Shown here: positions 1,863-60,996 of the stretch, in pieces
Layout: each line of letters opens with the position of its first letter
How positions within the stretch are numbered: the stretch's first letter is position 1
DNA from: Minisyncoccota bacterium
GTDB lineage: Bacteria > Patescibacteriota > Minisyncoccia > Phycocordibacterales > Phycocordibacteraceae
Direction: 5' to 3'
Assembly (NCBI GenBank): GCA_035627655.1
Contig: DASPLI010000001.1
Span: 195,355 to 259,354 of the forward strand
Length of the DNA stretch: 64,000 bases
Notes under the pieces: model-generated
What the model was told of the DNA's origin: nothing
Seen by the model: the letters and a program-made list of their open reading frames with translations, nothing else
Database searches by the model: none
Translations under genes and position numbers: made by a program

Positions 1863-1864
1863 AC

Positions 1865-2695: not shown

Positions 2696-2697
2696 AC

Positions 2698-3654: not shown

Positions 3655-3682
3655 TACTACACAGTATAGCCTGGAGCGAGGC

Positions 3683-4513: not shown

Positions 4514-4516
4514 ACA

Positions 4517-6346: not shown

Positions 6347-6348
6347 AG

Positions 6349-6984: not shown

Positions 6985-6988
6985 AGGG

Positions 6989-7417: not shown

Positions 7418-7447
7418 TAGTATCTAGTATACCAAGCATCTGCCTCC

Positions 7448-11981: not shown

Positions 11982-11983
11982 GG

Positions 11984-19712: not shown

Positions 19713-20306
19713 ATGACCTACACCGCTAAAACCTTTGCACTTCCTGAGCTTAAGGGTCTCTCAAAGAAGCAGATTGACGTGCATCTTGCGCTCTACGAGG
19801 GCTACGTAAAGCACGTAAACCTTATCGTCGATACCATCCAGCGCTTGCGCGAAGAGGACGCTGAAAAGAACGCCTTTACCATCAATGAACTGCGCCGCCG
19901 CATGGGCTTTGAGTTTGATGGCATGCGCATGCATGAGTATTACTTCGAGCAGTTTGAGGGCGGACCATCTATCGCTGACCCGGAAGGATCACTCCGCAAA
20001 GCGGTTACGGAGAAATACGGCGGCTGGGATCAGTTCATCGCGCATATAAAGGAAGTAGCTGGTACGCGCGGCATTGGCTGGGTAGTCGTGTACTTCGACG
20101 TGCGTGGCGCAACGGTACACACGGCGTTCGTAAACGACCATGAGCTTGGACAGCTGTCCGGCCTCCCTATTCTGCTTGCAGTTGATCTGTGGGAGCACGC
20201 CTTTATGGTCGACTACGTTCCTGCCGAAAAGAAAAACTACGTCGAAGCGTTTCTTGAAAACGTGAATTGGACCGTCGTAGACCGCCGCCTCTCGGAAGCC
20301 CTGTAG
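19713..20306 (+). CDS. sodA: Fe/Mn superoxide dismutase
   Basis: N-terminal LPELKGLSKKQIDVHL...YEGYVKH and C-terminal DLWEHAF(Y)xxDY metal-ligand motif. Start trimmed to MTYTAKTF (ATG at 19713). Confidence 0.85.
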   Translation: MTYTAKTFALPELKGLSKKQIDVHLALYEGYVKHVNLIVDTIQRLREEDAEKNAFTINELRRRMGFEFDGMRMHEYYFEQFEGGPSIADPEGSLRKAVTEKYGGWDQFIAHIKEVAGTRGIGWVVVYFDVRGATVHTAFVNDHELGQLSGLPILLAVDLWEHAFMVDYVPAEKKNYVEAFLENVNWTVVDRRLSEAL

Positions 20307-21739
20307 CACCATACGCCAAGCGCTGCATATAGCGCCCCTACCACCCACAGCGGAAACGCCGGTAGTGCAAATACAGCAAGGGGAAGGTTTGCAGCGGTCG
20401 TTGTGACCATAATGATGTAAGAGAGGAGTGCGTAGGCAGGTAAACCAAACACTGGCGCAAGAAGCGGTACGAGCGCTCCTGCGATAAGTGCAAACAGCGA
20501 AAACAGCATCGCAACCGGCACGACTGGCAAGACGAGTATGTTTGCCGGTAGCGCAACGACTGAAAACAGGCCGTTTTGATAGAGCAGCAACGGCAGCACG
20601 GCGATTTGCGCTGCAATCGTTGAGGAAACGATTTCTCGCAAGAACGCACTCTTGATCCTCTGCAGCCGCTCCTCTACAAGTGGCGCGCCGAATATAAGAC
20701 CTAGCGTCGCAATAAAGGAGAGTTGGAATCCGGGATCAAAAGAAAGCGAGAGCGGGTTCCATACAACCATCAAGAAGCCCGCAAACAACAGCGCGCGAAA
20801 CGCGTTATATGTGCGTCCAGTTGCCCGTGCGTAGAGAGCTATGGCTGCCATGATGCCGGCGCGAACGCTTGCAGCTCCGGCGCCCGCGACCAGTACGAAG
20901 CCGACAATGGTGACCGCGGCAAATCGCACGGCCCATCGCTTTGATACGGACTGAAAGAAACGCAGTACGAATTCCGCCACGATCATGACGTTGTAGCCGG
21001 AGAGTACGACGATATGGACCAGGCCCGAACGAATGAAATCATCCAGGAGCTCGTTCCCGAGCCCCTGCTTCCCACCAAGAATGAGTCCTCCCGCAAGAGC
21101 GGCGGTTGGCTCTGGGAGCGCAGCGCTGAGCGAGGAAAGTCCGTAGCGCTTTACGTCTGAAAAGAAACCAAACACGTGTGCCGCTATACCCGAGCGCCCG
21201 CCTGTCACTTCTACATGGCCCTCTTCTATGAGGGCGAATACTCCCTCTTTTGCGAGAAATTGATCGTATCGAAAAGTCCGTCCCGTCTCTGTAGCAAACG
21301 GTTCGGGGCGCATAAGCATGCCGGCAGCCCGTACCTGTTCCCCGTATCGGACTTCGGGAAACAGTGGCGCAACTACCAGTACCCGCACCCCTTCTGTCTC
21401 CAGTATGAGTCGCTGGGATGATTCCCGTAGGTCAGGATCAGTCACAATCTTCCCTTCAAGCACGACATTTGTTCCGATCCGTTCTGTAAGCACATACGGG
21501 AGTTCGTGTGGCGCGAACGACATACGCACACATCCTATGGCAGCGCCAAGAAGACACACGCCAAGAATAAGGGCGGGCACATTGCGTCTAAACGCATACA
21601 GCGCACTCAATACTGCACCAACAATAATCAGGAACAAGACACCGCTCCACCCGAAGGAGTACACAGAATACAGCGCTACACCAAGCGCAAATCCAAGTAG
21701 GCCGGCGCCTACATATACGTCCATGAAACGATTGTACAA
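20237..21739 (-). CDS. comEC: ComEC/Rec2-family DNA internalisation channel (competence domain only, no MBL domain)
   Basis: Polytopic membrane protein with the competence-domain motif GLVHIVVLSGYNVMIVAEFV, compared with the canonical GLSHLLAISGLHVG. Its 3' end overlaps the sodA 3' end by 70 bp. Confidence 0.75.
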   Translation of the reverse strand: MYNRFMDVYVGAGLLGFALGVALYSVYSFGWSGVLFLIIVGAVLSALYAFRRNVPALILGVCLLGAAIGCVRMSFAPHELPYVLTERIGTNVVLEGKIVTDPDLRESSQRLILETEGVRVLVVAPLFPEVRYGEQVRAAGMLMRPEPFATETGRTFRYDQFLAKEGVFALIEEGHVEVTGGRSGIAAHVFGFFSDVKRYGLSSLSAALPEPTAALAGGLILGGKQGLGNELLDDFIRSGLVHIVVLSGYNVMIVAEFVLRFFQSVSKRWAVRFAAVTIVGFVLVAGAGAASVRAGIMAAIALYARATGRTYNAFRALLFAGFLMVVWNPLSLSFDPGFQLSFIATLGLIFGAPLVEERLQRIKSAFLREIVSSTIAAQIAVLPLLLYQNGLFSVVALPANILVLPVVPVAMLFSLFALIAGALVPLLAPVFGLPAYALLSYIIMVTTTAANLPLAVFALPAFPLWVVGALYAALGVWCYRASERRRSTTVQFTFSRNAST

Positions 21740-30764: not shown

Positions 30765-31979
30765 CTAAATGCTTGAAGAGAGGGAGTAGATTGGCGAGAT
30801 CATGGAGATAGCGAACACGCCGACGAATGCGCCGATGATAAGCATGAGCATTGGCTCAATGACTGTTGAAAGATCCTTGGTTCCTTCCTCTACGTCTGTT
30901 TCGTAGTACTCGGCCACCTGTCCGAGCATGCCGGCCACCTGCCCCGTCTCTTCTCCCACGGCGATCATGTCGCCGACGAATACCGGATACAGCTTCGGGT
31001 GTTCGATGAATGCCGTTGATAGCGGCTCGCCTTTTTTCACGCGCACGCCTGCCTCCTGGACTACCTTGCCGAAGCGATTGTCTCCGACCACTTCTTCCGC
31101 AATAGCGATAGCGCTCAGCATTTCAACACCGGAAGACAGGAGCGAAGAAAGTGCGCGTGCAGCGCGTGCGCTGTACGTTTCTCGTACCAGGGTGCCGATG
31201 ACTGGGATGCGAAGCGCAACCGCAAGCACAATATTGCTCCCTACCTTAGAGCGCATAAATGCGATGATTGCGGCGACGGCAAGTATGAGAATCACGAACA
31301 CCAAAATCACATGGGAGGCCATAAAGTCCGAAATGTTTATGATCGTCTGCGTTGCTGTTGGAAGCGGCACCTGCAGATCCTTAAAGGTGGCGGCAAGCGT
31401 CGGAACGACGTAGATCATCATGAGAATGCCGATTACTACGACGGCAAACAGAATGATCGATGGGTAGATCATGGCGCCACGAATCTTCTTCTGCAGCGTA
31501 AAGGAGCGGTCCATCTGACGCGCAACCACGCGAAGCGCTTCGGCGAGCGTGCCGGACTCCTCGCCCGCTTTGGTCATAGCAATAAAGAGGCGCGAAAAGA
31601 CATTCTTATGAGCAGCAAGCGCTTCGCTAAATGCGTCCCCCTTCTTTACACGTGCTTCAAGGTCGGCGGTGACTTTCTTGAGTGCTTTATTAGTCGACTG
31701 TCGCTCGATCACAGAAAGCGCACGCGAGAGCGTGAGGCCTGCAGTGAGCATAGCCGCCAGGTTTTTGGTAAAGGTAATGCGTTCTTCCGTCTTGATGCCT
31801 GACGTAATGCTGATGTTGAGCAGGTTTGCAAACGGCAGTCCTCCCCCACCCTCTTCGATCGCGACCACAGTCGCGCTCTCCTTCTCAATCTCACTGTAGA
31901 TGGCAAAGCGTGAAGGAGCTTCCATCACGCGCTTTTCAACAGAACCGTCCTCTTTCTTGAGGGTGACGCGGAACTTCAT
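30765..31979 (-). CDS. pilC: type IV pilus assembly platform protein PilC (GspF family)
   Basis: Two GspF repeats (…LAAMLTAGLTLSRALSV… and …LSSLLSSGVEMLSAIAI…) and three TM segments. Confidence 0.85.
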   Translation of the reverse strand: MKFRVTLKKEDGSVEKRVMEAPSRFAIYSEIEKESATVVAIEEGGGGLPFANLLNISITSGIKTEERITFTKNLAAMLTAGLTLSRALSVIERQSTNKALKKVTADLEARVKKGDAFSEALAAHKNVFSRLFIAMTKAGEESGTLAEALRVVARQMDRSFTLQKKIRGAMIYPSIILFAVVVIGILMMIYVVPTLAATFKDLQVPLPTATQTIINISDFMASHVILVFVILILAVAAIIAFMRSKVGSNIVLAVALRIPVIGTLVRETYSARAARALSSLLSSGVEMLSAIAIAEEVVGDNRFGKVVQEAGVRVKKGEPLSTAFIEHPKLYPVFVGDMIAVGEETGQVAGMLGQVAEYYETDVEEGTKDLSTVIEPMLMLIIGAFVGVFAISMISPIYSLSSSI

Positions 31980-32462: not shown

Positions 32463-33341
32463 ATGGATAGCTCATCGCTTGGTGGCTTGGGCGGAAACCT
32501 TGCGTCGCTGGGAAGTCTCCTGGTGGCACTCGGCCCGTTCCTGCTCATCGCCATCGCCGCGCTTTTGGTTTCCGACGGCCTGCTCTCCCTCCGGGAGCGC
32601 GCGAGCCTGAAGAACGAAGTGCTGAAGGGCAACAACGCGATCGGTCTGCGCCGCCTCGGCCTCTTCTTGGGCCTCATGATCGGCTTCTCCGGTGTCATCA
32701 CCGGCGAAGGCACCGGTCAACTTTCGATCGACCTCGTGAACACGGCCATCTACGCCGCAGTGCTTGTCGCGCTGCTGCAGGTCGCGTTCTGGGTCAACGA
32801 CGTGCTCATCCTGCCCAAGGTGGCCAACTCAGCGGCGGTGCTTCAAGGCAACGCCGCGGTGGCAACCACCGAACTCGGCAGCATGGTCGCGACGGGTCTC
32901 ATCGCCAAGGCGGCGATCGAAGGCGGGAACGGCGGGGTCCTCCCCGTGCTCGTGTTCTTCGCTCTCGGCCAGATCGCGCTCGTCGTCATGACGAAGCTCT
33001 TCTCGGCAATCCATGCGAAAACGCGCTTGGTGTCCGAAATTGAATCGGGCAACCAGGCGGCGGCGATCGTCGTCGGCGCGAAACTGTGGGCCTACGGGCT
33101 CATCATGGCGACCGCGGCGGGCGGTGCGTTCAGCGGCTGGGGGGGCGACCTCCTTGCGTTCGGTCTGACCGCGCTTCTCGGCGTGATCTTCCTGTTCATC
33201 TCAAGCTGGGTGGTGGATTTCCTCCTCATCCGGTGGCACACGTTGCATGAGATCGTGACAGCGAAGAGCACCCCCTCGGCGCTCGTGTTCGCCGGCGGCC
33301 AGATCGGCTTGGCGTACGCCATCGCGACCTTGATCGTCTAA
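32463..33341 (+). CDS. DUF350 (YjfL-like) repeat membrane protein
   Basis: Repeated N-x-A-x-A/G...G-L/M-I-x-x motifs within TM hairpins (GNNAIGLRRLGLFLGLMIG, GNAAVATTELGSMVATGLIA, GNQAAAIVVGAKLWAYGLIM). Confidence 0.5.
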   Translation: MDSSSLGGLGGNLASLGSLLVALGPFLLIAIAALLVSDGLLSLRERASLKNEVLKGNNAIGLRRLGLFLGLMIGFSGVITGEGTGQLSIDLVNTAIYAAVLVALLQVAFWVNDVLILPKVANSAAVLQGNAAVATTELGSMVATGLIAKAAIEGGNGGVLPVLVFFALGQIALVVMTKLFSAIHAKTRLVSEIESGNQAAAIVVGAKLWAYGLIMATAAGGAFSGWGGDLLAFGLTALLGVIFLFISSWVVDFLLIRWHTLHEIVTAKSTPSALVFAGGQIGLAYAIATLIV

Positions 33342-33359
33342 CGGCACTCACCTGCCATC

Positions 33360-33393
33360 AACGCCCCGGGACTTCGGTTCCGGGGCGTTTTGC
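33360..33393 (+). terminator. rho-independent terminator
   Basis: AACGCCCCGGgacttcggttCCGGGGCGTTttgcat. Confidence 0.55.
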
Positions 33394-33493
33394 ATAGTTG
33401 ACTTTTCGACCGATACATGCTATACTGTCCAAAGCCCAGTCTACCGGGCGTTGTGGCAGTTTGTGCTGCTACGCAACAGAAGGAGAAAGCACC

Positions 33494-33898
33494 TTGAAAA
33501 GGGATTTTAGGTTGCAGCTCATGGGAGCTGTCGCTGTCGCGATTCTCGCATCTGCGTGTTCTGAACCGCAGCCTCGCGGCTTCGCAACTGATCAGCCGAC
33601 GCGTATGTGCGTTGATGATCGGGGCATGCGGCAGGATGAAAGTCGGTGCGCGACGCGTGCCGGCTACGTCAATCCCTACTACTGGTACTACGTCGGCCGC
33701 GGCGGCTACGTGCCGCCCGTCGGTTATGCGGTGCGCGGCGGCACACGTCAGCCGCTCGCCGCAACGAACTACCAATCCGCAGCTACGGCTGAACGCGCCG
33801 CGATCGCTCGCGGTGGCTTCGGCGCCAGTGCGTCGCGGAATACCACGGTGAGCCGCGGTGGCTTCGGCGGCTCGTCTCGCGCTTCGGCGGGAGGCTAA
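33494..33898 (+). CDS. lipoprotein, YjfM/DUF1190-like (TTG start)
   Basis: RBS AAGGAG 8 nt upstream of TTG. Lipobox ILASAC. Cys pair (MCVDD…RCATRAG) and Gly-rich C-terminus NTTVSRGGFGGSSRASAGG, which I recall as resembling the E. coli YjfM C-terminus. Confidence 0.45.
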   Translation: MKRDFRLQLMGAVAVAILASACSEPQPRGFATDQPTRMCVDDRGMRQDESRCATRAGYVNPYYWYYVGRGGYVPPVGYAVRGGTRQPLAATNYQSAATAERAAIARGGFGASASRNTTVSRGGFGGSSRASAGG

Positions 33899-33901
33899 CC
33901 A

Positions 33902-35053
33902 ATGGAGCGCCTCTTGATCACACCGCGCGCCAACTGGCAGGAAAAGGTCGAACGACTCGGCCTGATCTGGCACACGGCGCAAGGACAACCCTACTGGAAC
34001 GAATCGGCCTACTATCGCTTCTCAGCGGAGCAGGTCGATGAAATCGAACGGGCGACGGAGGCGCTTTACCAGCTCTTCGTTGCTGCCGGTGATCGGATCG
34101 TCAATGACGACGATCTGCTCACTCGGCGCTTCGGGATCCCGAAGTTCGCTATTCCCCTGATCAAGCGTGCCTGGGATGAGGAGCCTCCGGCTCTGAATTT
34201 CGGCCGCTTCGATCTTGGGTACAACGGACGGAACCCGCCGAAACTGTTCGAATTCAACTGCGACACACCGACGTCTCTGTTTGAGGCGGCGGTGGTCCAG
34301 TGGGATTTCAAAGAGGACCGCTTCCCCGGCGATGACCAATTCACGAGCTTGCACGACAAGCTCGTGGACAAGTGGCGGGACGTCAAACCCCACTTGAAGT
34401 CGAACCTCGTGCACTTTGTGCACGTGGACGACGCCGCCGGCGAAGACACGCTCACGACGACCTACCATCGCGACTTGGCCCAACAAGCCGGGCTCGAGAC
34501 GGAAGGGCTCTTCATTGAGCAAGTCGGGTGGGACAAAAACCGGCGCCGGTTTGTCGACCTCTATGGTCGGCCGATCGATGTCCTGTTCCACCTCTATCCG
34601 TGGGAATGGTTGATTCACGACGACTTCGGCGAACACATCGTCGAATGCTACGACCAGATGCAGTGGATCGAACCGATCTGGAAGATGATGTGGTCGAACA
34701 AGGCCATATTGCCTATCCTGTGGGAAATGAACCCCGGGCATCCGAACCTGCTGCCGTCCTATTTCGACCGACCCGCGTCTGGCGATTACGTTGAAAAACC
34801 CATTCTCGCAAGAGAAGGGGCCAACGTGACTATCGTCAGCAACGGCGTCGAAGTCGCAAAGACCGACGGTGACTACGGCGAGGAAGGCTTCATCTATCAA
34901 CAGCTCTACAACCTGCCGGACTTCGATGGAAACTATCCCATCATCGGCAGCTGGGTGGTTGAAGGATGGGCTGCCGGTATGGGTATCCGCGAAGGCGGAC
35001 TCATCACCGGCAACACCGGACGCTTCGTCCCGCACGTGTTCACCCCTGCATAA
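33902..35053 (+). CDS. glutathionylspermidine-synthase-like ATP-grasp amidoligase (YjfC/YgiC family)
   Basis: Length about 383 aa. KPILAREGANV matches the K-P-x-x-x-R-E-G-x-G-V motif of the GSP-synthetase family. Conserved acidic and aromatic stretches throughout. Confidence 0.65.
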   Translation: MERLLITPRANWQEKVERLGLIWHTAQGQPYWNESAYYRFSAEQVDEIERATEALYQLFVAAGDRIVNDDDLLTRRFGIPKFAIPLIKRAWDEEPPALNFGRFDLGYNGRNPPKLFEFNCDTPTSLFEAAVVQWDFKEDRFPGDDQFTSLHDKLVDKWRDVKPHLKSNLVHFVHVDDAAGEDTLTTTYHRDLAQQAGLETEGLFIEQVGWDKNRRRFVDLYGRPIDVLFHLYPWEWLIHDDFGEHIVECYDQMQWIEPIWKMMWSNKAILPILWEMNPGHPNLLPSYFDRPASGDYVEKPILAREGANVTIVSNGVEVAKTDGDYGEEGFIYQQLYNLPDFDGNYPIIGSWVVEGWAAGMGIREGGLITGNTGRFVPHVFTPA

Positions 35054-36352: not shown

Positions 36353-38095
36353 TTATTCGCTCACCGCGCGTAGCACTTCTTCAAGCGAGGTCATACCCTT
36401 TGCCGCCTTATAAATACCGTCCTCAAGCATGGTGAGCATGCCCTCGTTTCGTGCCTGCTCTTCGATCTGTTCGGAGGTTGCGTTTTTCATAATGAGATCG
36501 CGCGTTGCTGAAGAGACAGACAAAATTTCGTGGATGCCGATACGGCTCTTGTATCCAGCGTCATTGTCACCGCCCTTGGGGCGATAAAACGGAATGTCAT
36601 CCAACTTTCCTTTGACCACCTTTTCGTCCGTGAGTGCCTTGAATGCAGCTTCAAAGTTTCTTGTCGGAGCAATCTTCTCTCGCTCCGTCTTTGAGAGTGT
36701 GTACGCCTCCTTTCCGTCAGTGAGTCGACGCACCAGGCGTTGTCCGACCACGATGCGAAGCGTAGACACAAGCAGGAATGGTTCGACGCCCATATCAATA
36801 AGACGCGGAATTGCGCCGGCGGCGGAGTTGGTATGGATGGTCGAGAGCACCAAGTGGCCGGTCAGTGCCGCATTGATTGCAAGTGATGCTGTTTCTCCGT
36901 CGCGAATTTCTCCCACCATGATGATGTCCGGGTCCTGACGCACAAGGGAGCGTAGTCCTGACGCGAAGGTAAAGCCGATGGTCGGATTTACCTGCGTCTG
37001 GTTGATGCGCTTCATCTGGTATTCGATCGGATCTTCAACAGTCGAGATGTTGACGTCCGGCGTATTCAAAATATCGAGAATGGTGTAGAGCGTGGTGGTC
37101 TTACCGGAGCCGGTCGGACCAGAGACAAGAATAAGACCAGTGGTTGCCTTCGTTGCTTTGTGGATGCGTTCCAGCCCCTCGCCGTGGAAGCCAAGCGCCT
37201 CGAGGGTGAAGCCTTCTCCGGTCTCGCGAAGCAGGCGCATGACGATCTTCTCGCCGAAATAGGTCGGCAGAAGCGATACGCGGAAAGACACCTTCTCCCC
37301 TTCCGTTTCCATCTTGAAGCGTCCGTCTTGCGGCAGACGCTTCTCGTCGAGCTTAAGGTTTGCGAGCACCTTGAGGCGCGCAGTAATACCCGGAGCTGCA
37401 ACCTTCGGCAAGGTCATTGCGTCATGGAGGATGCCGTCGATGCGGTAGCGCACAAGTACTTCTGCTTCTGCCGGCTCGATGTGAATGTCGGATGCGCCCT
37501 GCGTGATGGCGTGGCGAAGCAGAGTATCGACGATCTTTACGATCGGAAGATCTTCCGCCATCTTCTTGAGGTCTTCGCCGGACGTCTCGTCTCCCGTGTT
37601 TTCTTTTACCAACGACAGCTTCCCCGCTTCGGTACCGATAATGTCGCCGAATTCTTCTTTGAGGGATTTCTGATACTGCAAAAGCGCGTTCTTGATGGAC
37701 TCTTCGTCCGTCAGGCGCGGCATGATCTTGAGCCCGGTCTTCTTTCTGACCGAGTCGATGGATGGTAGGTCCTCCGTATCAAGCATGGCTACCTCAAGGC
37801 AGTCGCTACCGCGTCTGAAGGCAATGATGCTGTGCGTGCGTGCGATTGGTTCGGGAATAAGGGAGAGCACCTCAAGCGGGATCTTCTCGTCTTTGAGGTT
37901 CACAAATGGAATACCAAGCACGTATGCCTTGATGCGGCGGAGCGCATCTGGAGAAATAAGGCCCTGCGCAAGCAGCACGTCTCCGATGGACTGCTTCTTT
38001 TCCTGCGCTTCAACCTCTGCCGCTTCCACATCTTTGCGGGAGACGACGCCCGAGTCGAGGATGAATGCCTTCAAATCTTTCTCTGAGACTTTCAT
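36353..38095 (-). CDS. pilB: type IV pilus assembly ATPase PilB (GspE family)
   Basis: N-terminal GspE_N-like domain. Walker A LVSGPTGSGKTTTLY, Asp box, Walker B and His box. Zn tetracysteine absent. Confidence 0.85.
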   Translation of the reverse strand: MKVSEKDLKAFILDSGVVSRKDVEAAEVEAQEKKQSIGDVLLAQGLISPDALRRIKAYVLGIPFVNLKDEKIPLEVLSLIPEPIARTHSIIAFRRGSDCLEVAMLDTEDLPSIDSVRKKTGLKIMPRLTDEESIKNALLQYQKSLKEEFGDIIGTEAGKLSLVKENTGDETSGEDLKKMAEDLPIVKIVDTLLRHAITQGASDIHIEPAEAEVLVRYRIDGILHDAMTLPKVAAPGITARLKVLANLKLDEKRLPQDGRFKMETEGEKVSFRVSLLPTYFGEKIVMRLLRETGEGFTLEALGFHGEGLERIHKATKATTGLILVSGPTGSGKTTTLYTILDILNTPDVNISTVEDPIEYQMKRINQTQVNPTIGFTFASGLRSLVRQDPDIIMVGEIRDGETASLAINAALTGHLVLSTIHTNSAAGAIPRLIDMGVEPFLLVSTLRIVVGQRLVRRLTDGKEAYTLSKTEREKIAPTRNFEAAFKALTDEKVVKGKLDDIPFYRPKGGDNDAGYKSRIGIHEILSVSSATRDLIMKNATSEQIEEQARNEGMLTMLEDGIYKAAKGMTSLEEVLRAVSE

Positions 38096-50276: not shown

Positions 50277-50311
50277 CATAGGCAGACTTGATCTTAGACA
50301 GGAGGAGGATC

Positions 50312-51457
50312 ATGCCTGAGGCGACGCGGGTGGAAACATCTGCAGCGACATGCGAAATTCGGTGTTCTCGTGATCGATTTTCTGGTGCCCGTGGGGAGTT
50401 CGCACGAATAGCTAGTTTCGTGGAAGAACTTCTGACGGAAGCCGGGCTATCCGGGAATTTCCAATGCGTGCCGCATAAGCCAGTTCGCGGCGGACATGCG
50501 AACAAGGGCCAAGGATTCCGTATCACGCGAGTGGACGGGTCTGATGGGCTGATGTGTATCATCCAGCTCGGCTCCAATGATTCTGCATGGGAATGCAAAC
50601 TCTTGCTTCCGGCGACGTTCTTGCCTGAAAAGGTGAAGACGCAGCTGGAAGAGGCGCTTCGGCGCCGAAATGCTCGGCCTGTGAAGGCGGTCCCGCCTCC
50701 TCCCCCGGAGGAGCCCGACCCGCCACCACCAGCGCCGGCCGTATGCGATGTTATTGCGGATCTCGAGCGCGTCGCGCTCCTGATTGCAGGACAGTTCCCC
50801 GAACGGAAGAGTTGCTCTCCGTACGAGGTGATCGCCGATCTGTTCATTGATGAATATCAATGGGCATCGGCGGAAGCGCACCAAGCGATACTGGCTTTGG
50901 TCAACCGGCGGCACTTTAAGCTTGCAGGCAGCACTGCGGATCAGCGTTACATCAGCATTCTGGACGGCGCGCTGTGCGACCACTTGAAGGTCCTCAGCGT
51001 GCTCAAGGAAGCTGAAACGAAGACTCCCGCTCCCGTCGTCACTGCTCCCGTCGTCTCCGACAAGCAGCGATTGCGGACAGAAGCCTCGCAGATGTACGTC
51101 GGCCAGCCTCTGGACGACGAACCTCGCCCCCGACCACGGCTTGTTCGCTCGGAGGCGCCTGCCCCGACGCAACCAGCACCGCCTGCGGCTCCCACCGGAA
51201 TCGCGGCCCAGCTTGCCGATCTTGAGCAGAAGTCACTGGTATTCGAGGAAGCGCAGCACCAGCTGCGCCAAGCCGAACCCGCGACCGCTGCGCTTGAGGA
51301 GCGCTGGGAACGTGCTCAGGAAGAGATCGCTGCGATTACGCGCGAGCGCGAACGTTTGAGCGCGGAGTGTGCCGATGCGAACCGCATCGTTGCAGATCCG
51401 AACTACGCTCAGGCGGCCGAAAAGCTTGCTCGCATTCGCGAGATCATTTCATCCTGA
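50312..51457 (+). CDS. hypothetical multidomain protein (Cys-containing N-domain, poly-Pro linkers, C-terminal coiled coil)
   Basis: Strong RBS GGAGGAGG. 381 aa. PPPPPEEPDPPPPAP and PAPTQPAPPAAP linkers. Confidence 0.5.
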   Translation: MPEATRVETSAATCEIRCSRDRFSGARGEFARIASFVEELLTEAGLSGNFQCVPHKPVRGGHANKGQGFRITRVDGSDGLMCIIQLGSNDSAWECKLLLPATFLPEKVKTQLEEALRRRNARPVKAVPPPPPEEPDPPPPAPAVCDVIADLERVALLIAGQFPERKSCSPYEVIADLFIDEYQWASAEAHQAILALVNRRHFKLAGSTADQRYISILDGALCDHLKVLSVLKEAETKTPAPVVTAPVVSDKQRLRTEASQMYVGQPLDDEPRPRPRLVRSEAPAPTQPAPPAAPTGIAAQLADLEQKSLVFEEAQHQLRQAEPATAALEERWERAQEEIAAITRERERLSAECADANRIVADPNYAQAAEKLARIREIISS

Positions 51458-51463
51458 ACGCGA

Positions 51464-51494
51464 GCGGCCCCCGGTACGGGGGCCGCTTTGTTTT
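51464..51494 (+). terminator. rho-independent terminator
   Basis: GCGGCCCCCggtacGGGGGCCGCtttgtttt. Confidence 0.7.
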
Positions 51495-52647
51495 AAGTCT
51501 TCTTTCTAAAGTAGGTTTTTTTCTTGAGCTTTTCCGGCATATAGCTCTCGGTGTCGTAGCGCTTGTATCCCTTTCCGTAGCCGAGTTCTTTCATGAGCTT
51601 GGTCGGTGCGTTTCGAATATTTTTCGGGATCGGCAGATTTCCCAAGCGAGCAACGTCTGCCTGCGCTTCTCGGAGCGCTTCGTATGCTGACTTATCTTTC
51701 TTGCAATTGGCGAGATACGCGGTGCCGTGCGCGAGGTTGATGGCGCATTCCGGATAGCCGATCGTTTCGCACGCACGGAATACCTCGTTTGCAACGACAA
51801 GCGCGGTTGGCTGGGCAAGGCCAATGTCTTCGGACGCGAAGATCACCATGCGCCGCGCAATAAAGAGCGGATCCTCCCCTGCTTCTACCATGCGAGCAAG
51901 ATAGTAGATGGCAGCGTCCGGCTGATTTGCACGCATGCTTTTTATATAGGCGGAAATAGTATCGTAGTGTTCTTCACCTTTCTTGTCGTAGCGAAGATGC
52001 GGAGACTCAAGTGCTTTGGTAAGCGTTTCCGTCGTAACCGCTCCGTACAAACGTTCTGCGCCTTCAAGCATGGTGAGCGCTCGTCGCGCGTCCCCGTTTG
52101 CGTAACCCATGAGCCATTCAAACGCGTCCTTCCCGACTTTAAGTTTTGACCGCTTCACAATCTTCTTGAGCGCTTCTTCCGATAGCGGCTCGAGTACGAA
52201 TACCCTGCAGCGAGATAGGAGCGCCGGGATGACCTCAAATGATGGGTTTTCAGTCGTTGCACCGATCAGCGTGAGGTCTCCGCTTTCAACGTATGGCAGG
52301 AGAAAATCCTGCTGGCTTTTGTTGAAACGATGGATTTCATCGAGAAACAGTACCTTGGGCTTCCCAATCGCGAGCTTCCCGTTGCGGCTTGTGTCGTCGA
52401 CGATCCGACGAATGTCGTCCTTGCCCGCAGAGACGGCAGACAGCTCATACAGTTCTGCATCAAGCGCCTTGGCATAAATGCGTGCGATGGTGGTCTTTCC
52501 TGTGCCTGGCGGCCCCCAGAGAATAAACGAGAATCGATGTTTTTTCTCTATAGCAACACGGATTGGCTTGCCTTCTCCAACCAGATGCTCTTGCCCCACC
52601 ACCTCTTCAAGGCGTTCAGGACGAAGGCGGGAGGCTAGGGGTTCCAT
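51493..52647 (-). CDS. rarA: replication-associated recombination protein RarA/MgsA (AAA+ ATPase)
   Basis: LWGPPGTGKTTIARI Walker A, LFLDEIHRFNK Walker B, C-terminal MgsA helical region. Confidence 0.85.
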   Translation of the reverse strand: MEPLASRLRPERLEEVVGQEHLVGEGKPIRVAIEKKHRFSFILWGPPGTGKTTIARIYAKALDAELYELSAVSAGKDDIRRIVDDTSRNGKLAIGKPKVLFLDEIHRFNKSQQDFLLPYVESGDLTLIGATTENPSFEVIPALLSRCRVFVLEPLSEEALKKIVKRSKLKVGKDAFEWLMGYANGDARRALTMLEGAERLYGAVTTETLTKALESPHLRYDKKGEEHYDTISAYIKSMRANQPDAAIYYLARMVEAGEDPLFIARRMVIFASEDIGLAQPTALVVANEVFRACETIGYPECAINLAHGTAYLANCKKDKSAYEALREAQADVARLGNLPIPKNIRNAPTKLMKELGYGKGYKRYDTESYMPEKLKKKTYFRKKT

Positions 52648-52685
52648 GCTCCTATCCTACTCCTTTCGGAAAATATGGCATGAAG

Positions 52686-52713
52686 AAACGGCCGCCTCGT
52701 GTGGCGGCCGTTT
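52686..52713 (-). terminator. hairpin terminator downstream of acidic-repeat gene
   Basis: AAACGGCCGCCtcgtgtGGCGGCCGTTT. Confidence 0.45.
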
Positions 52714-52733
52714 CTTTGCTGGCGAGCTACGGA

Positions 52734-53858
52734 CTAGTCAACTTCGTTGAGCGCATCTTCTGCGAGCTCTTCCGCTTCTTCAGCGTACTCGATTGCTTCG
52801 TCGTAGTCTTCGTCATCGAAGGCATCTTCTGCATCATTGAGTGCGTCGAGCGCGTCATTCAAGAGGTCTTCCGCGTCTTCCGTGTCGTCATTAGAGTCGC
52901 TGATCGCTTCCTGCGCTTCATCGATGGCGTCTTCAGCGTCTTCAATTGCTGCTGCCGCTTCGCTCTCGTCCTCGTCGAAGTCAATCTCATCCAACGCTTC
53001 GCTGATAAGGTCGCGCGCCTCGTCAATCAGATCCATTGCGTCCTCGTAATCTTCGTCGTCGATGTCGTCCTCTGCCTCGTTGAGGAGTTCTTCTGCCTCA
53101 TCAAGCGCTTCCTGTGCATCTTCAACGTCCTCACCGTCGTCTTCTGCTTCCTCGACGTTCTCGCGCGCCTCATCAAGCTCATCTTGAGCTTCCTCGAGCG
53201 CCTCTTCCGCGCTGTCTTCGTCGGCGTCTTCGTTGTCATCATCCTCGTCGTCGCTTGAATCGTCGATGGCGTTGTCTGCCTGGGACTCGGCAGTGCGCGC
53301 AAGCGAGGTGGCGCTTGCAATGTTTGCGTTGAGGAATGCGCGGAACGCTGCAAAGAGGTTTGAAAGCGAGTCTTCAAGGTCGCTATCATCTGCCTCATCC
53401 CGTGCGTCTTCGTAGGCGCTAATGGCGTTGAGGAGCGCCGTGCGCGCCTCAGCTGCTCCACCAATATTCGGGTTGCTTGGGGTTGTTGGGCTGCCCGGAG
53501 TAGTTGGGATGGTTGGCGTGCCGCCAATGAGCGTCTTGTATTTTGCACGCGAGAGCGGGCCGAAGGTTCCAGTTGCGGAAATGCCGTTTGCCGTCTGCCA
53601 GCGAGAGACTGCGTCAGCGGTCTTCTCGCGGAAGAGGGTGGTTTCCTGGCCCGGAGCGCCTACGCCGCTCGTTGCGACAATGTAGCCAGCTCCGTTGAGG
53701 TACTGCTGCAAGCAGCGGACATCTTCGCCGGTTACGCCCAGGGTAAGGTCACGAGTAAAATTACAGTCAGTGGCTGCAAAGACACCTGCCGGAAGTGCGA
53801 GCGTTCCGACAAGCGCAAGCGAGAGAACTGACGATATGAAAATCTTTCGCATAGGCAT
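52734..53858 (-). CDS. secreted peptidoglycan-binding-domain protein with hyper-acidic repetitive C-terminal region
   Basis: Signal peptide (ALVGTLALPAGVFAA). PG_binding_1-like segment (LTLGVTGEDVRCLQQYLNGAGYIVATSGVGAPGQETTLFREKTADAVSRWQTANGISATG). Roughly 230 aa of E/D/A/L repeats (EAxDxLDEAxE…). Confidence 0.6.
   Translation of the reverse strand: MPMRKIFISSVLSLALVGTLALPAGVFAATDCNFTRDLTLGVTGEDVRCLQQYLNGAGYIVATSGVGAPGQETTLFREKTADAVSRWQTANGISATGTFGPLSRAKYKTLIGGTPTIPTTPGSPTTPSNPNIGGAAEARTALLNAISAYEDARDEADDSDLEDSLSNLFAAFRAFLNANIASATSLARTAESQADNAIDDSSDDEDDDNEDADEDSAEEALEEAQDELDEARENVEEAEDDGEDVEDAQEALDEAEELLNEAEDDIDDEDYEDAMDLIDEARDLISEALDEIDFDEDESEAAAAIEDAEDAIDEAQEAISDSNDDTEDAEDLLNDALDALNDAEDAFDDEDYDEAIEYAEEAEELAEDALNEVD
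52740..53400. repeat. imperfect tandem coding repeats encoding the D/E-rich helical units
   Basis: Recurrent gcgtcttc/gcctcttc…gag units are visible by eye across the region. Confidence 0.5.
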
Positions 53859-53961
53859 AGCGCGTTTAATGTGTATGTCTGTACGATAGCACGGCTGCAT
53901 GAAGCGATCGTGTGAAAAAAAGACCGCCGAGCCCCCTTGCGGGAACTCGACGGCCACTCGC

Positions 53962-54336
53962 CTACTTCTTACCGAGGCTTTGCAGGAGCTCCAGCAGTCT
54001 CTTCACGCTTACGCGTGACAACTTGCGCGAGAGCACCAGGAGTTCGATCTCTTCGGCAGTTTCAGGCACGACTTCATCAGTCGCACCCGTCTTTCCTTGG
54101 TTACCCAGTCCTTCGTAGAACGAGGCAACGGACTTATCAAGCGCATTGGCTATGTCGAGGAGTCGACTGGCCGCGATGCGATTGATGCCCTTCTCGTACT
54201 TCTGTACCTGCTGAAACGTCACGCCGAGTAGCTCGGCGAGCCGTTCCTGAGACATACCGATTTCAAGCCGCCGAGTTCGGACACGCTGCCCGATCTTGCG
54301 GTCTACTATGGTTGCCCCACGTTCGTCTTTTGACAA
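53962..54336 (-). CDS. XRE-family HTH transcriptional regulator
   Basis: IGQRVRTRRLEIGMSQERLAELLGVTFQQVQKYEKGINRIAASRLLDIANAL. Confidence 0.7.
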   Translation of the reverse strand: MSKDERGATIVDRKIGQRVRTRRLEIGMSQERLAELLGVTFQQVQKYEKGINRIAASRLLDIANALDKSVASFYEGLGNQGKTGATDEVVPETAEEIELLVLSRKLSRVSVKRLLELLQSLGKK

Positions 54337-54412: not shown

Positions 54413-54486
54413 TAGGAGAATCGAACTCCTGCCAGCAGTTTGGAAAACTGCGGTTCTACCATTAAACTAATCCCGCTTCGAAGCCG
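54413..54486 (-). tRNA. tRNA-Gly (anticodon UCC), CCA encoded
   Basis: Cloverleaf folded by hand: acceptor GCGGGAU/AUCCCGC, D-stem GUUU/GAAC, anticodon stem GCAGU/ACUGC with loop UUUCCAA, T-stem AGGAG/CUCCU with loop UUCGAUU, 3' ACCA. Confidence 0.8.
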
Positions 54487-54541
54487 AGGATACCATGTTT
54501 TGCTCTGTATTTCAGCGCCGTTGTGCCGTAGCATACAGGTA

Positions 54542-55756
54542 ATGCTCCAGCACTTCCTTTCCATAGCCGGTGCCCTCCTTGTTACCTTTATCGCTACGGT
54601 CTCAAACCATGCAGGAGATTTCCGCACCCCACCTAATCTCTCGGACATGGACGCCGTTGAGGAGGTGGTTCTAGCTCAGCCAACAGTCCCTACTCCCTTT
54701 GAACAAGTAATAGAGGATATCGTCAAAAACGCTTCCAGTACGCCGGCTGTTCCCGGTACCACTACCCCACCCCTTTCTCCGGCAAAGCCCGCTGGCCCTA
54801 TTACGCCTACGACCCCCACCCCGCTGCCGCCGCTCACGCTCCCAGTTACCCCACCGCCACCGCCAACAACGCCGGTTGTTCCGCAGGTGGACGCCACCCT
54901 CTCGGACGAGGCGCTGCTGCGGGCAGCGATCGTCAATATCATCTGTTTCAGCACCGACGGTACCTCCGGCGTCTCAGGCTCTGGCGTAATCGTAGACCCG
55001 CGCGGCATTGTCGTTACGGTATCCCATATCGCCCAGCACTTCCTGCTCCGTGATTACCCATCGGAAGATGCAGGTGTCTGCTATATCCGCACGGGAAGTC
55101 CGGCCAAGAATGCCTATACGGCAGAACCGATCTTTATTTCCCCGACCTGGATTGAGGAAAACAGCACCGCCTTCCTCACGAGTCGCCCACGGGGCACAGG
55201 CGAGCACGACTTCGCCTTCCTTGCGATTACCGGTTCTCTCACCAAGACTCCGCTTCCAGCTCGCTTTGACCATATTCCGCTTGCGCCAGCCAATACCGAG
55301 GTAGAGGAAGGTGAACGGGTCGGCACTGGCTCATACGCAGCTGAATTCCTTACCAGCTCCCAAGTACGCTCTTCCCTCTACCCCACGATCAAGTTTGCAG
55401 ACGTCAAAGACGTGCTTACCTTCGATCACCAGACCCCAGGCCTTATCTCTGTTGCTGCCGGATCAGCAGCGCAGGAGGGCTCTTCTGGTGGTGCCGTTAT
55501 GAATAGCGACGACCGTCTGGTCGGTGTCATCACCACAAGGACCGTAAAGCCAGATCTGTCCTTGAGGACGCTCCAGGCGCTCACGATGGACCACATCCGT
55601 TCAAGCTTCCGAGCAGATATGGGCGAGAATCTTGATGCTTACCTCAAGAGCGATCTCTCAACGCTCATCGTAAAGTTCCGCGGCAAGGCAGTCGGGCTCT
55701 TCGATATCCTCATGGAGGCAGTGGAAGAGTGCGAGGAAGACCGTGCGGGTTGTTAG
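54542..55756 (+). CDS. secreted trypsin-like (S1 family) serine protease
   Basis: TM/signal (IAGALLVTFIATV), Pro/Thr-rich linker, His region GIVVTVSHIAQH, catalytic Ser GSSGGAV. Start trimmed to the ATG at 54542 so as not to overlap the tRNA. Confidence 0.6.
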   Translation: MLQHFLSIAGALLVTFIATVSNHAGDFRTPPNLSDMDAVEEVVLAQPTVPTPFEQVIEDIVKNASSTPAVPGTTTPPLSPAKPAGPITPTTPTPLPPLTLPVTPPPPPTTPVVPQVDATLSDEALLRAAIVNIICFSTDGTSGVSGSGVIVDPRGIVVTVSHIAQHFLLRDYPSEDAGVCYIRTGSPAKNAYTAEPIFISPTWIEENSTAFLTSRPRGTGEHDFAFLAITGSLTKTPLPARFDHIPLAPANTEVEEGERVGTGSYAAEFLTSSQVRSSLYPTIKFADVKDVLTFDHQTPGLISVAAGSAAQEGSSGGAVMNSDDRLVGVITTRTVKPDLSLRTLQALTMDHIRSSFRADMGENLDAYLKSDLSTLIVKFRGKAVGLFDILMEAVEECEEDRAGC

Positions 55757-56071: not shown

Positions 56072-56755
56072 TCACGAGATATTCTCATAATATTGCCCAT
56101 TCATCAATTCCTTGGGGAGTAAATTGAGCCATTCCCCGAGCTTTTGGCGCAAATATCCGCTTGAAACGATGACTGTGCACACCCCGCCAGCAAATCGTTT
56201 CACCTTGGGAACCTTCTGCACGATAACGGTCGTTTGAAACTGGGAAAGTGGGATTCCAGAAGCGAAGGACCAGAAGCGCCGTATCGATGGATCATCCGCA
56301 TCTGGATAGGATAGAAGCGCCACTTTGACCTGGTTCTGGGGCACGTTGCAGACCCGGGTAAGAAAGGTGATGAAGATCTTTATTGTTTCCGGGTTTGCTC
56401 CCGAAAACCGAACCTGGTTCCTGGCCGCCTTCGTTCCGGCACTCCAATATAGTGTCATCCCGGCAATAAATAGCGGATGGTACTTGAGCGTCTCGAACTC
56501 TGTTCGCGCCTCCACCCGCGCCTGCTCGTATGCTTCCCGAAGCCGCCGGCCGCGAACCTTGGCAAGTCCGGCAACCCGGACCCTGCTCTTCTCCCTGGCA
56601 GCAGCCTGGAGTTTTTCCCGCAAATCGGCAGACCAGGCTTCGCCGGAGAACCAGGCGGAGAGGGTCGCCCGCGGTATACCAAGCTCTTTCTCAATCTCCT
56701 TATAGCTTTTTCCAGACTTTCTGAGTTCCTCAGCCTTATTGCGATCAGTACGCAT
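56072..56755 (-). CDS. hypothetical HTH-domain protein embedded in tRNA cluster
   Basis: N-terminal HTH (KSGKSYKEIEKELGIPRATLSAWF). 227 aa, no further recognisable motifs. Confidence 0.4.
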   Translation of the reverse strand: MRTDRNKAEELRKSGKSYKEIEKELGIPRATLSAWFSGEAWSADLREKLQAAAREKSRVRVAGLAKVRGRRLREAYEQARVEARTEFETLKYHPLFIAGMTLYWSAGTKAARNQVRFSGANPETIKIFITFLTRVCNVPQNQVKVALLSYPDADDPSIRRFWSFASGIPLSQFQTTVIVQKVPKVKRFAGGVCTVIVSSGYLRQKLGEWLNLLPKELMNGQYYENIS

Positions 56756-58801: not shown

Positions 58802-59596
58802 TCAGCCGAGCGTAATGGAAACGGGGCAGTGGTCTGAGCCGAAGACCTCAGGATGTATTTCTGCTTTCTTTACTTTGGACGCAAGTTTCTTTGAGACGAA
58901 AACGTAGTCAATTCTCCATCCTACATTACGCTCTCGAGCGTGATTGAAGTGGCTCCACCAGGAGTAATGGCCGTTGCCCTTGGTAAAGAGGCGGAAGGTA
59001 TCCATAAATCCTGCATCAACAAGGCGCTGAATTCCTTCGCGTTCCTCGTCGGTAAAGCCTTTCACGCCTCGGTTTTCCTTTGGGCGCGCAAGATCGTCTT
59101 CTGTGTGGGCAACATTGAGGTCGCCGCAAAAGATAACCGGCTTTTCCTCCTCGAGACGCTTCATGTACTCAAGAAACGCCGGATCCCATTGGTTATGGCG
59201 GAGGGAGAGGCGAGAGAGGTCGTCTTTTGCGTTCGGGGTGTAGACGGATACGACGAAAAAGGTGTGCATGTCTGCGGCGATAATGCGCCCTTCTTTATTG
59301 GGGTCTCCGTAGCCGTCAGTATGGAGGCCATACTTCTCAGCGATATCGTCGGGAAGTCCAAAGCGGACATCCGACGGAGTTTCTTTCGTGAAAATAGCAA
59401 CGCCGCTGTAGCCCTTCTTCTCTGCGGAGCACCAGTACTCCTCGTACTCGGGCAGGTCGATTTCTGCCTGGCCCTCCATAGCCTTGGTTTCCTGGAGGCA
59501 GAGAATATCGGGTTTGTATTTCTTTACGAAGGGAACAAAGACCCCTTTTTTATGGACGGCCCGTAACCCGTTGACGTTCCAGGAGATGATGCGCAT
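58802..59596 (-). CDS. xth: exodeoxyribonuclease III
   Basis: MRIISWNVNGLRA…CLQETK…SDHCPV, the EEP-family AP endonuclease signature. Confidence 0.85.
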   Translation of the reverse strand: MRIISWNVNGLRAVHKKGVFVPFVKKYKPDILCLQETKAMEGQAEIDLPEYEEYWCSAEKKGYSGVAIFTKETPSDVRFGLPDDIAEKYGLHTDGYGDPNKEGRIIAADMHTFFVVSVYTPNAKDDLSRLSLRHNQWDPAFLEYMKRLEEEKPVIFCGDLNVAHTEDDLARPKENRGVKGFTDEEREGIQRLVDAGFMDTFRLFTKGNGHYSWWSHFNHARERNVGWRIDYVFVSKKLASKVKKAEIHPEVFGSDHCPVSITLG

Positions 59597-60012: not shown

Positions 60013-60918
60013 TTATTTTCCTCGGCTATGAAACTTCCGATGCACTTCTCGCAGATGTGCATCCGTCACATGCGTGTAAATTTGCGTCGTGTTGATGGAT
60101 GCATGACCAAGAAGTGCCTGCACGCTTCTAATATCAGCGCCGTTTGAGAGAAGATCGGTTGCAAAGGAGTGGCGAAGTACATGCGGCGTGACTTTCTTGG
60201 TAATTCCCGCTTTCGCCGCATACTTTTTCATAATGTTCTGCACCGAGCGGGGCGTGAGACGGGCTGCGTTCTTGCGGGACATCTTTTCGTCCGCCACCAC
60301 GTTTACAAACAGTGCCTCCTCCATGTCTTTGCGCTCCTTCAGGTACGTGCGCACCGCTTCCTTTGCGGAAGGGGAGAGGAAGACGACGCGCACCTTGTCT
60401 CCCTTACCGCGCACTGACAATTCGTCTCGCGAGAGGTCGATATCCGAGTTGAGGGAGCAGAGTTCCGAAACACGAAGACCAGTTGAGAAGAGAAGTTCGA
60501 GAATTGCACGGTCACGCAGTGCCCGTTGACTGGTGCCTTTTGTTGCGTCGAGAAGACGCTCGAGCTCAGTTGAAGAAATAAGGTCGAGGGAGCGTTCAGG
60601 GAGCTTCGCAAGTTCGATGCGCTCCGGGGAAACGCACGGAATCTCGCGCTTGCGGAGAAACTTGAGAAACGCACGAAGCGCGATGAGGTAATAATTCTGT
60701 GTTCGGCGCTTCATGGCGCCTGAGGTGCCTGGCTGGCGGTTCAGCCAGAGGCGGAATTCGCGAATTTTGTCTTCCGTGATATCGCTCACATTCTTGATCT
60801 GTCCCCAAGCAAAGAATCGATCAAGATAGTGGTCGTAGTTTTCAACTGTCTTTACCGCGCGACCGCGCTCAATCTCGATGTATTCAAGAAATTGGCGTTT
60901 CATTGCGGCAGCATCCAT
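60013..60918 (-). CDS. xerC: tyrosine recombinase XerC/XerD family
   Basis: N-terminal core-binding domain. C-terminal R…HVLRHSFATDLLSNGADIRSVQALLGHASINTTQIYTHV with catalytic Y. Confidence 0.8.
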   Translation of the reverse strand: MDAAAMKRQFLEYIEIERGRAVKTVENYDHYLDRFFAWGQIKNVSDITEDKIREFRLWLNRQPGTSGAMKRRTQNYYLIALRAFLKFLRKREIPCVSPERIELAKLPERSLDLISSTELERLLDATKGTSQRALRDRAILELLFSTGLRVSELCSLNSDIDLSRDELSVRGKGDKVRVVFLSPSAKEAVRTYLKERKDMEEALFVNVVADEKMSRKNAARLTPRSVQNIMKKYAAKAGITKKVTPHVLRHSFATDLLSNGADIRSVQALLGHASINTTQIYTHVTDAHLREVHRKFHSRGK

Positions 60919-60949
60919 AAAAAAAGTATACCGTACGACTTCGCACAAT

Positions 60950-60996
60950 ATTTTGTCGGGAAAAACAAAAAGGCCGCGCACGTGAGCGCGGCCTTT
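60950..60996 (-). terminator. rho-independent terminator (serves the 61018-62841 gene)
   Basis: On the minus strand AAAGGCCGCGCtcacgtGCGCGGCCTTT is followed by ttgtttttcc. Confidence 0.65.

Follow-up and report, generated by a model that had tools for sequence, protein, structure and literature searches.

A predicted wall-binding protein of Patescibacteria with a tail of folded, hyper-acidic DUF4398-type helical units

We describe a gene at 52734..53858 on the minus strand of a 64,000-nt stretch of contig DASPLI010000001.1 from a Minisyncoccota bacterium (GCA_035627655.1); the whole stretch is called the window below, and positions are counted from its first letter. The open reading frame (ORF) translates into a protein of 374 amino acids, laid out as a signal peptide, a PG_binding_1 domain, a 20-residue Pro/Thr linker and an all-helical tail of 243 residues. 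Its net charge is −96, and it carries about 100 carboxylates. The sequence is best explained as that of an envelope protein without enzymatic activity, made by a single-membrane Patescibacteria cell of the Paceibacteria type. Tentatively, and with slightly less than even confidence, we propose that it is a wall-bound polyanionic rod that would hold counter-ions and set the charge of the wall, as teichoic acids do.

The wall-binding module and the acidic tail

By inspection, residues 1-28 (53775..53858; all parts of the gene are on the minus strand), i.e., MPMRKIFISSVLSLALVGTLALPAGVFA, form a putative Sec-type signal peptide with n-, h- and c-regions. The n-region is basic, the core is hydrophobic, and the predicted cleavage falls between VFA and A, so that the mature protein would start with ATDC. 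This AxA-type site lies 2-4 residues ahead of an invariant Cys in 49 of the 49 aligned family members. The signal-peptide-like N-terminus argues for an extracytoplasmic location.

Residues 29-110 (53529..53774) comprise an N-terminal strand containing Cys32 and the three-helix PG_binding_1 domain, as delineated by Pfam, AlphaFold and Foldseek. The Pfam family PF01471 matched residues 43-101 (E = 3.3e-12; 46.9 bits, cut-off 23), and this part was modelled with predicted local distance difference test (pLDDT) values of 92-98. Foldseek related it with a probability of 1.00 to the solved PG-binding domains of CtpB (4c2e), a C. difficile protein (5tv7), EpsAB (4g54) and SleC (9h68), with root-mean-square deviations of 2.3-3.0 Å over 77-85 columns for 4c2e, 5tv7 and 4g54; the corresponding E values (0.03-0.16) were modest because the full-length model was used as the query. 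A single-sequence search for solved relatives gave nothing significant; there was a weak direct sequence match of the PG-binding module to 1lbu. PF01471 was precomputed in all 120 homologues listed, and C32, C49, W87 and Q88 are invariant in this part of the family alignment. By profile and fold tests the protein belongs to PG_binding_1, and peptidoglycan binding itself is predicted. The original prediction, made from the DNA letters, of a secreted protein with a PG_binding_1-like segment was therefore borne out by the Pfam and Foldseek matches and by the AxA-type site. A disulfide between Cys32 and Cys49 is plausible, because bacteria of the candidate phyla radiation (CPR) widely encode MdbA/VKOR-type disulfide machinery (PMC6744442).

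The same three-helix module is present in CtpB (4c2e), the C. difficile protein (5tv7), SleC (9h68) and the Streptomyces Zn D-Ala-D-Ala carboxypeptidase (1lbu). In these known examples it escorts an enzyme (protease, transglycosylase or carboxypeptidase), whereas here it is joined only to acidic helical bundles; the acidic family also differs from them in adding the N-terminal strand and the invariant Cys pair C32/C49. No amidase, muramidase, peptidase or transglycosylase domain was found with Pfam or NCBIfam, where a SleB match (E = 0.0075) covered the PG-binding part only, and signal peptide, PG-binding domain, linker and helices together make up the whole AlphaFold model. We therefore rejected the identity of a peptidoglycan hydrolase, the name some sources give to homologues.

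Neither an LPXTG-type sorting signal at the C-terminus (which ends ALNEVD) nor a lipobox before Cys32 was found. Because both signals are missing, attachment to the wall would be non-covalent rather than anchored; of the "wall-anchored" protein first proposed, the wall-binding domain stands and the anchor does not. The domain is followed by a flexible linker rich in Pro, Thr, Ser and Gly (residues 111-131; 53466..53528), with pLDDT below 50 at 114-130, whose length and sequence vary across the family.

AlphaFold models made with 49 or 15 aligned sequences showed nine helices in the tail, mostly with pLDDT above 90, which are grouped by threes (132-203, 210-293 and 296-373) and separated by connectors of 2-6 residues. 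The first unit, R0 (residues 132-203; 53250..53465; helices 132-155, 158-176 and 180-203), is weakly acidic and of a degenerate DUF4398 type; alone it had no Pfam match, and hhalign aligned it to the first DUF4398 repeat of another protein, P0189. The connector between R0 and R1 (residues 204-209; 53232..53249) lies in an Asp/Glu/Ser-rich run, DDSSDDEDDDNEDADED (198-214), and its pLDDT drops below 50 at 206-208. The two units that follow are hyper-acidic. R1 (residues 210-295; 52974..53231; helices 210-240, 246-267 and 271-293, pLDDT 93-98) matched DUF4398 (PF14346) with E = 5e-8 and 33.7 bits, above the cut-off of 27.9, and the whole protein scored 33.1 bits against the same cut-off. R2 (residues 296-374; 52737..52973; helices 296-321, 327-348 and 352-373) fell just under it (E = 2.7e-5; 25.0 bits), and is an internal duplicate of R1, with 47% protein identity, 59% DNA identity and z = 11 against composition-preserving shuffles. 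The profile of the tail aligned to P0189 over 209 columns spanning R0-R2 (hhalign probability 96%, E = 4.3e-9), and P0189 in turn matched DUF4398 in 3 stretches (E = 6e-29). On these profile alignments the tail is assigned as three tandem DUF4398-type three-helix units of about 80 residues each.

The heptad core positions of the helices are Ala, Leu or Ile, and the exposed positions are nearly all Asp or Glu. Autocorrelation of acidic and hydrophobic residues peaked at lags of 3, 4 and 7, and again at about 81-84 residues. The original prediction had described recurring EAxDxxDEAxE units, with matching imperfect tandem repeats in the DNA. This pattern is the heptad signature of amphipathic helices and not the repeat unit, the real units being the three modules of about 80 residues. 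Tandem Repeats Finder (minimum score 30) reported two 9-bp arrays of 2 copies, a 10-bp array of 2 copies in the linker and period-3 codon bias, including a period-3 array at 53214-53253 over the R0-R1 connector; with arrays this trivial, and with R1 and R2 only 59% identical in DNA, tandem repetition at the DNA level was rejected. A long helical, repetitive and polyanionic tail was predicted correctly, as the nine helices, the net charge and the R1/R2 duplication show. Its stated length of about 230 residues is close to that of the helical tail (243 residues; 132-374), but the hyper-acidic part covers only 180 residues, and what had been called a filament is instead a series of folded bundles joined to the wall-binding domain by a flexible linker. 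The original prediction had also exposed itself to refutation at two points, and neither went against it: the N-terminal segment does align with PG-binding profiles, and the tail is no generic low-complexity sequence attached to an enzyme.

Residues 195-374 consist of 52% Asp+Glu, 18% Ala, 8% Leu and only 1% Lys+Arg. The approximately 60 other ORFs of the window average 12.1% Asp+Glu and 11.4% Lys+Arg, and none of them exceeds 37% Asp+Glu in any segment of 60 residues, against a maximum of 60% in the acidic protein. The remaining proteins of the window are balanced in charge, which makes the acidity a feature of this one protein rather than of the genome, and acidity of the kind found in halophile proteomes was rejected. 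We also looked for calcium-binding loops. No EF-hand family in Pfam matched the protein, and the canonical loop D-x-[DNS]-x-[DNS]-G-x-[ILV]-x-x-x-E is not present: in the turn EAEDDGEDVEDA, positions 8 and 12 are occupied by Asp and Ala, and a second turn, SDSNDDTEDAED, lacks the Gly. Faint Pfam matches to SMBP, HEPN, PMEI, TPR and FliS stayed below their cut-offs and were set aside as generic helical-bundle noise.

Conservation of charge in the family, and the same repeat elsewhere

A word-index search returned 272 homologues at E ≤ 1e-3, of which the top one shares only 54% identity. Named homologues are labelled "peptidoglycan-binding protein" and come from Patescibacteria, Paceibacterota, Kaiserbacteria and Nomurabacteria. 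A scan of one genome per species found at least 198 relatives with the motif G[ED]DVRCLQx[YF], and all 198 carriers were Patescibacteria-type metagenome-assembled genomes, mostly Paceibacteria/Parcubacteria but also Minisyncoccia, Kaiser-, Nomura-, Vogel- and Wolfebacteria. The family is thus already in the databases under a generic, automatically assigned name and is not rare, whereas the original prediction had called such a filament unusual. Literature searches found no published study of the acidic-tail family; its hyper-acidic, folded-repeat nature and its restriction to Patescibacteria appear to be undescribed. The number of units varies between 2, 3 and 4 across the family, with lengths of 266-532 amino acids, and one Patescibacteria genome has two paralogues about 38 kb apart (loci L061 and L083; JAKLEX010000001.1, 229573-240619 and 267800-278870).

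These data bear on the sceptical view that the tail is meaningless or disordered low-complexity sequence, perhaps appended to a wall hydrolase, or that the ORF is wrongly called or has arisen artefactually from DNA of biased composition. The composition is indeed very biased, long ORFs also occur on the opposite strand, and some sources name homologues "peptidoglycan hydrolase-like protein". However, the protein has no hydrolase domain, its 272 homologues share a conserved architecture, and its tail combines DUF4398 homology with the internal duplication at z = 11. A disordered acidic tail is also contradicted by pLDDT values above 90 over most of residues 132-374 and by the conserved heptad core with its 3-4 spacing. 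The artefact, disordered-tail and hydrolase readings are excluded, and we leave this whole group of explanations next to no chance.

In the alignment of 49 homologues, 67 of the 165 tail columns contained at least 70% Asp or Glu, and 54 were at least 70% hydrophobic with a 3-4 spacing. Basic residues averaged 5% in these tails, and the invariant tail residues were core Ala and Leu, together with a few Asp in turns or caps. The median net charge was −87 for the 82 members found in 80 genome loci, with only 4 of them less negative than −40, and −82 among the 120 homologues listed. Since the Asp/Glu columns and the core are conserved without a defined surface site, selection preserves the core of the bundles and their overall negative charge; the conserved property is charge, not the exact surface residues.

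An exhaustive search with the tail profile reached 1607 representatives at E ≤ 1e-3, 87 of them at E ≤ 1e-30. Proteins outside the family that carry the tail repeat have 14-21% Asp+Glu and 10-17% Lys+Arg. In P0189, which also has immunoglobulin-like and glucodextranase-B domains, the DUF4398 repeats are charge-balanced; P0124 combines a DUF4398-type scaffold with two PG_binding_1 domains, and P0179 combines one with a beta-propeller. Because the same repeat occurs elsewhere with ordinary charge, the acidity is a selected, lineage-specific trait. Judged from these searches, the repeat fold is widespread and portable, and the carboxylate coat is particular to the PG_binding_1 family of Patescibacteria.

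P0122 (977 residues) is a family member with a GDSL/SGNH hydrolase, possibly a wall esterase, inserted between its first DUF4398 unit and further acidic repeats. The giants P0150, P0161, P0173, P0181 and P0185 (1888-3904 residues) contain 17-25 DUF4398-type stretches of ordinary charge, and several of the giant repeat proteins look archaeal, or at least non-Patescibacteria, in sequence style.

DUF4398 (PF14346) is an uncharacterised helical domain, of the same type as the tail units, for which Leptospira LipL71/LruA and Pseudomonas aeruginosa PA2901 are examples. In LipL71/LruA it is fused to a wall-binding LysM domain (PMC5406399; PMC8951592). This is the nearest described architecture, in that both proteins join DUF4398 to a peptidoglycan-binding module in an envelope protein; the partner here is PG_binding_1 rather than LysM, and the acidic protein, unlike LipL71, is not a lipoprotein. 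The DUF4398 examples examined have ordinary charge, whereas the acidic protein has three tandem copies in which nearly every exposed residue is Asp or Glu.

Profile searches of the PDB with the family matched the tail to computer-designed helical repeat proteins only; homology to these was rejected, and the matches were read as convergence of idealised Ala/Leu/Glu helices. With either the full model or a tail-only model, Foldseek found no natural fold match to the tail at E <0.02. A local match to a single three-helix bundle (4fzo) had a template-modelling (TM) score of 0.70 on the target at E = 6.8, weak matches to spectrin, EzrA and EbhA had E values of 0.85-7 and TM-scores of 0.15-0.31, and there was a faint Pfam match to SbsC_spectrin-like (E = 0.03). 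Spectrin repeats, EbhA, EzrA and the designed repeats are likewise tandem antiparallel helical bundles with short connectors, but the matches are not significant as homology, and none of these proteins is hyper-acidic.

Such neighbours raise the possibility of a structural spacer or strut, i.e., a peptidoglycan-tethered rod that would set the distance from the wall to the surface layer (S-layer) or the membrane, with charge repulsion keeping the rods extended in a spectrin-like or Ebh-type manner. Tandem three-helix bundles with connectors of 2-6 residues would suit such a role, the best structural neighbours, weak as they are, are rod proteins (S. aureus EbhA, 2dgj; EzrA, 4uy3; spectrin, talin and vinculin), the same repeat builds giants of up to 3904 residues with 25 matched stretches, and P0122 displays a GDSL hydrolase on the same scaffold. 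A strut, however, has no need for about 100 carboxylates, and the giant repeat proteins manage with ordinary charge. In addition, the C-terminus has no second attachment point, and all of the fold matches have E >0.02 and low TM-scores. We consider a spacer function improbable.

The transcription unit and the rest of the window

The coding sequence is complete, with 374 codons and a TAG stop (52734-52736), and its start is backed by an alignment with 48 homologues, in which all homologues begin at the aligned Met. A longer ORF from a GTG at 53957 was rejected. That start is not credible, because the extra 5′ part crosses the terminator hairpin of the upstream neighbour, a gene for an XRE-type helix-turn-helix protein (53962-54336); this terminator (53912..53955, minus strand) has a hairpin at 53955-53922 with a 15-bp stem, including 10 G-C pairs, followed by TTTTTTT.

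On the downstream side, a hairpin at 52678..52719 (minus strand) starts 15 nt past the stop codon and has a G+C-rich core and a U-rich 3′ side. It is the probable intrinsic terminator of the acidic-protein gene, although a consensus terminator scan did not list it. The 89-nt region 52648-52736 has a folding energy of −35.9 kcal/mol (z = −4.9), and none of 200 shuffled sequences folded as well. The next gene, rarA/mgsA (51493-52647), has its own ribosome-binding site. Bracketed by hairpins and followed by a gene with a separate ribosome-binding site, the acidic-protein gene therefore looks like a stand-alone transcription unit. In the 60-nt gap upstream of the gene, no sigma-70 promoter was detected by a consensus scan; reading the sequence by eye suggested a possible extended −10 element, TGCTATCGT, at 53891-53883.

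Clustering of all neighbours in the 80 genome loci revealed no conserved partner gene. RarA, the best-conserved neighbour, was adjacent in 13 of the 80 loci, and RarA, a trypsin-like protease and a CCA-adding enzyme were nearby in close relatives only, distant members being without them. The same clustering gave no link to defence or resistance genes. This counts against an electrostatic shield or decoy, i.e., an anionic layer that would absorb cationic antimicrobial peptides, lysozyme-type hydrolases or phage endolysins, or repel negative particles or mineral surfaces. The extreme, conserved negative charge at the wall and the lack of a conserved specific binding site would both fit a shield. 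The argument is nevertheless one from charge alone, and it largely overlaps with the wall-polyanion explanation, of which shielding would be a consequence rather than a separate mechanism. As an explanation in its own right we think it very improbable.

Several other features of the window deserve mention. Genes of the pilus and DNA-uptake toolkit typical of Patescibacteria include LysM + M23 peptidase (17545-18684), ComEC (20237-21739) and PilC-like (T2SSF) and PilB-like (T2SSE) genes (30765-31979 and 36353-38095). At 651-12979 on the minus strand, about ten co-oriented ORFs, nearly all without a Pfam match, surround a TraG/VirB4-like P-loop ATPase (4517-6346; PF19044, E = 8e-25), and the cluster looks like a divergent type IV secretion or conjugation system. 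A DUF350 membrane protein and, after it, a glutathionylspermidine-synthase-like preATP-grasp protein (E = 1e-142) are encoded at 32463-35053 on the plus strand, where the G+C content of the window is highest (0.59-0.60, compared with about 0.55); this pair is polyamine-related and possibly acquired. Between 54403 and 56890, tRNAs for Gly (tcc), Pro (tgg), Gly (gcc) and Arg (tcg) are interleaved with a secreted trypsin-like protease (54440-55756, plus strand) and a helix-turn-helix gene (56072-56755); the TTG start of the protease overlaps a tRNA-Gly, so its true start must lie further downstream. An ORF of 389 residues at 50288-51457 (plus strand) is Pro-rich with a coiled-coil-like C-terminal region and has no Pfam family; its coding status is uncertain, because several antisense ORFs overlap it. 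Finally, a tyrosine recombinase of the Xer or phage-integrase type (60013-60981, minus strand; E = 3e-45) adjoins an exonuclease III-type Exo_endo_phos gene (58802-59596, minus strand), and could either serve as a housekeeping XerC/D or mark the boundary of a mobile element.

Proposed role at the cell wall

In other monoderm bacteria the wall polyanions are teichoic acids or poly-gamma-glutamate, which are expected to bind divalent cations and to set wall charge. The acidic protein has the high fixed negative-charge density of a wall polyanion (−96, with 52% Asp+Glu over 180 residues). Like wall teichoic acids and peptidoglycan-linked poly-gamma-glutamate, it would place a dense polyanion on the peptidoglycan of a single-membrane cell, although the analogy is functional: those polymers are non-ribosomal, phosphate- or gamma-glutamyl-based and covalently attached, whereas here a ribosomally made, folded protein would be held by a non-covalent binding domain.

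We propose that, after export, the PG_binding_1 domain would dock non-covalently on the cell's own peptidoglycan, and that the linker would allow the acidic bundles to be placed within the wall or above it. In this position the bundles would act as a fixed polyanion that condenses Mg2+ and Ca2+ (or protons or polyamines) and determines surface potential and wall charge. Carrying so few positive charges, they should need bound counter-ions to stay folded, since about 100 carboxylates are uncompensated, by analogy with halophilic and calsequestrin-type proteins, and their folding and extension may respond to cation supply. A cation-dependent conformational change of the bundles is thus a prediction that we draw from this analogy. 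High-capacity, low-affinity cation buffers of the calsequestrin type also expose far more carboxylates than basic groups and do without a canonical EF-hand, but calsequestrin consists of thioredoxin-like domains, operates in another compartment and has no homology to the acidic protein, which has three-helix bundles and in which cation binding is predicted.

The literature on CPR envelopes leaves room for a wall-polyanion role without proving it. A published description gives CPR cells a monoderm envelope that contains peptidoglycan and an S-layer (PMC6146748), and one Patescibacteria genus was inferred to rely on rhamnose polysaccharide "instead of teichoic acids" (PMC11809585).

Several points weigh against a role as a polyanion of the cell's own wall. 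Peptidoglycan binding, cation binding and localisation are all predicted. A canonical Ca2+-binding motif is absent by inspection and Pfam, the turn between helix 1 and helix 2 (EDDGEDVEDA) departing from DxDxDG...E, and in a few members of the family the acidity is no more than mild (net charge −5 to −21). AlphaFold ignores electrostatic destabilisation, so that a folded state in dilute water is an assumption, and the arrangement between units and domains is uncertain, with predicted TM-scores of 0.38-0.44. Lastly, the PG_binding_1 domain could bind the wall of a host cell instead of the cell's own.

This last point leads to host attachment, in which PG_binding_1 would grip the wall of a bacterial host, or the acidic bundles would adhere to a host surface via divalent-cation bridges, the remainder of the protein staying associated with the episymbiont. 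Paceibacteria are host-dependent, and secreted proteins with peptidoglycan-binding domains were among the most highly expressed unknown genes in a metatranscriptome study of three Paceibacteria, which proposed a role in attachment (PMC10936435). The variable number of units and the presence of two paralogues in one genome would also fit an attachment factor. Yet there is no second anchor (transmembrane segment, lipobox or sortase signal) to hold the protein on its producer, and the surface positions conserve only charge and no defined site. As to the metatranscriptome study, the one traceable gene (PMX_810_sub_00350) has 2079 nt, which is not the family size, so the link is unproven, and the hosts in that study are archaea, which lack murein. 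A host-attachment role is, in our judgement, unlikely.

The wall-polyanion explanation can be extended further. Paceibacteria may have replaced the classical wall polyanions by abundant, gene-encoded, peptidoglycan-docked and carboxylate-coated bundles, which would serve as a reservoir of Mg2+, Ca2+ and protons and fold or unfold with cation supply. We hold this extension to be doubtful but conceivable; if true, ultra-small bacteria with little biosynthetic capacity would in effect possess a "teichoic acid" made of protein. If, on the other hand, the protein is only one more wall-associated helical protein, the outcome is a useful annotation and no discovery.

Much of bacterial diversity belongs to the Patescibacteria, of which very few have been cultured and whose envelopes are hardly known. 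A small conserved gene that would place about 100 negative charges on the wall offers a handle on cation management and surface charge, and possibly on host contact, in these organisms. For DUF4398, a widespread domain that repeatedly travels with wall-binding modules, the acidic protein would provide a first hint of function as well.

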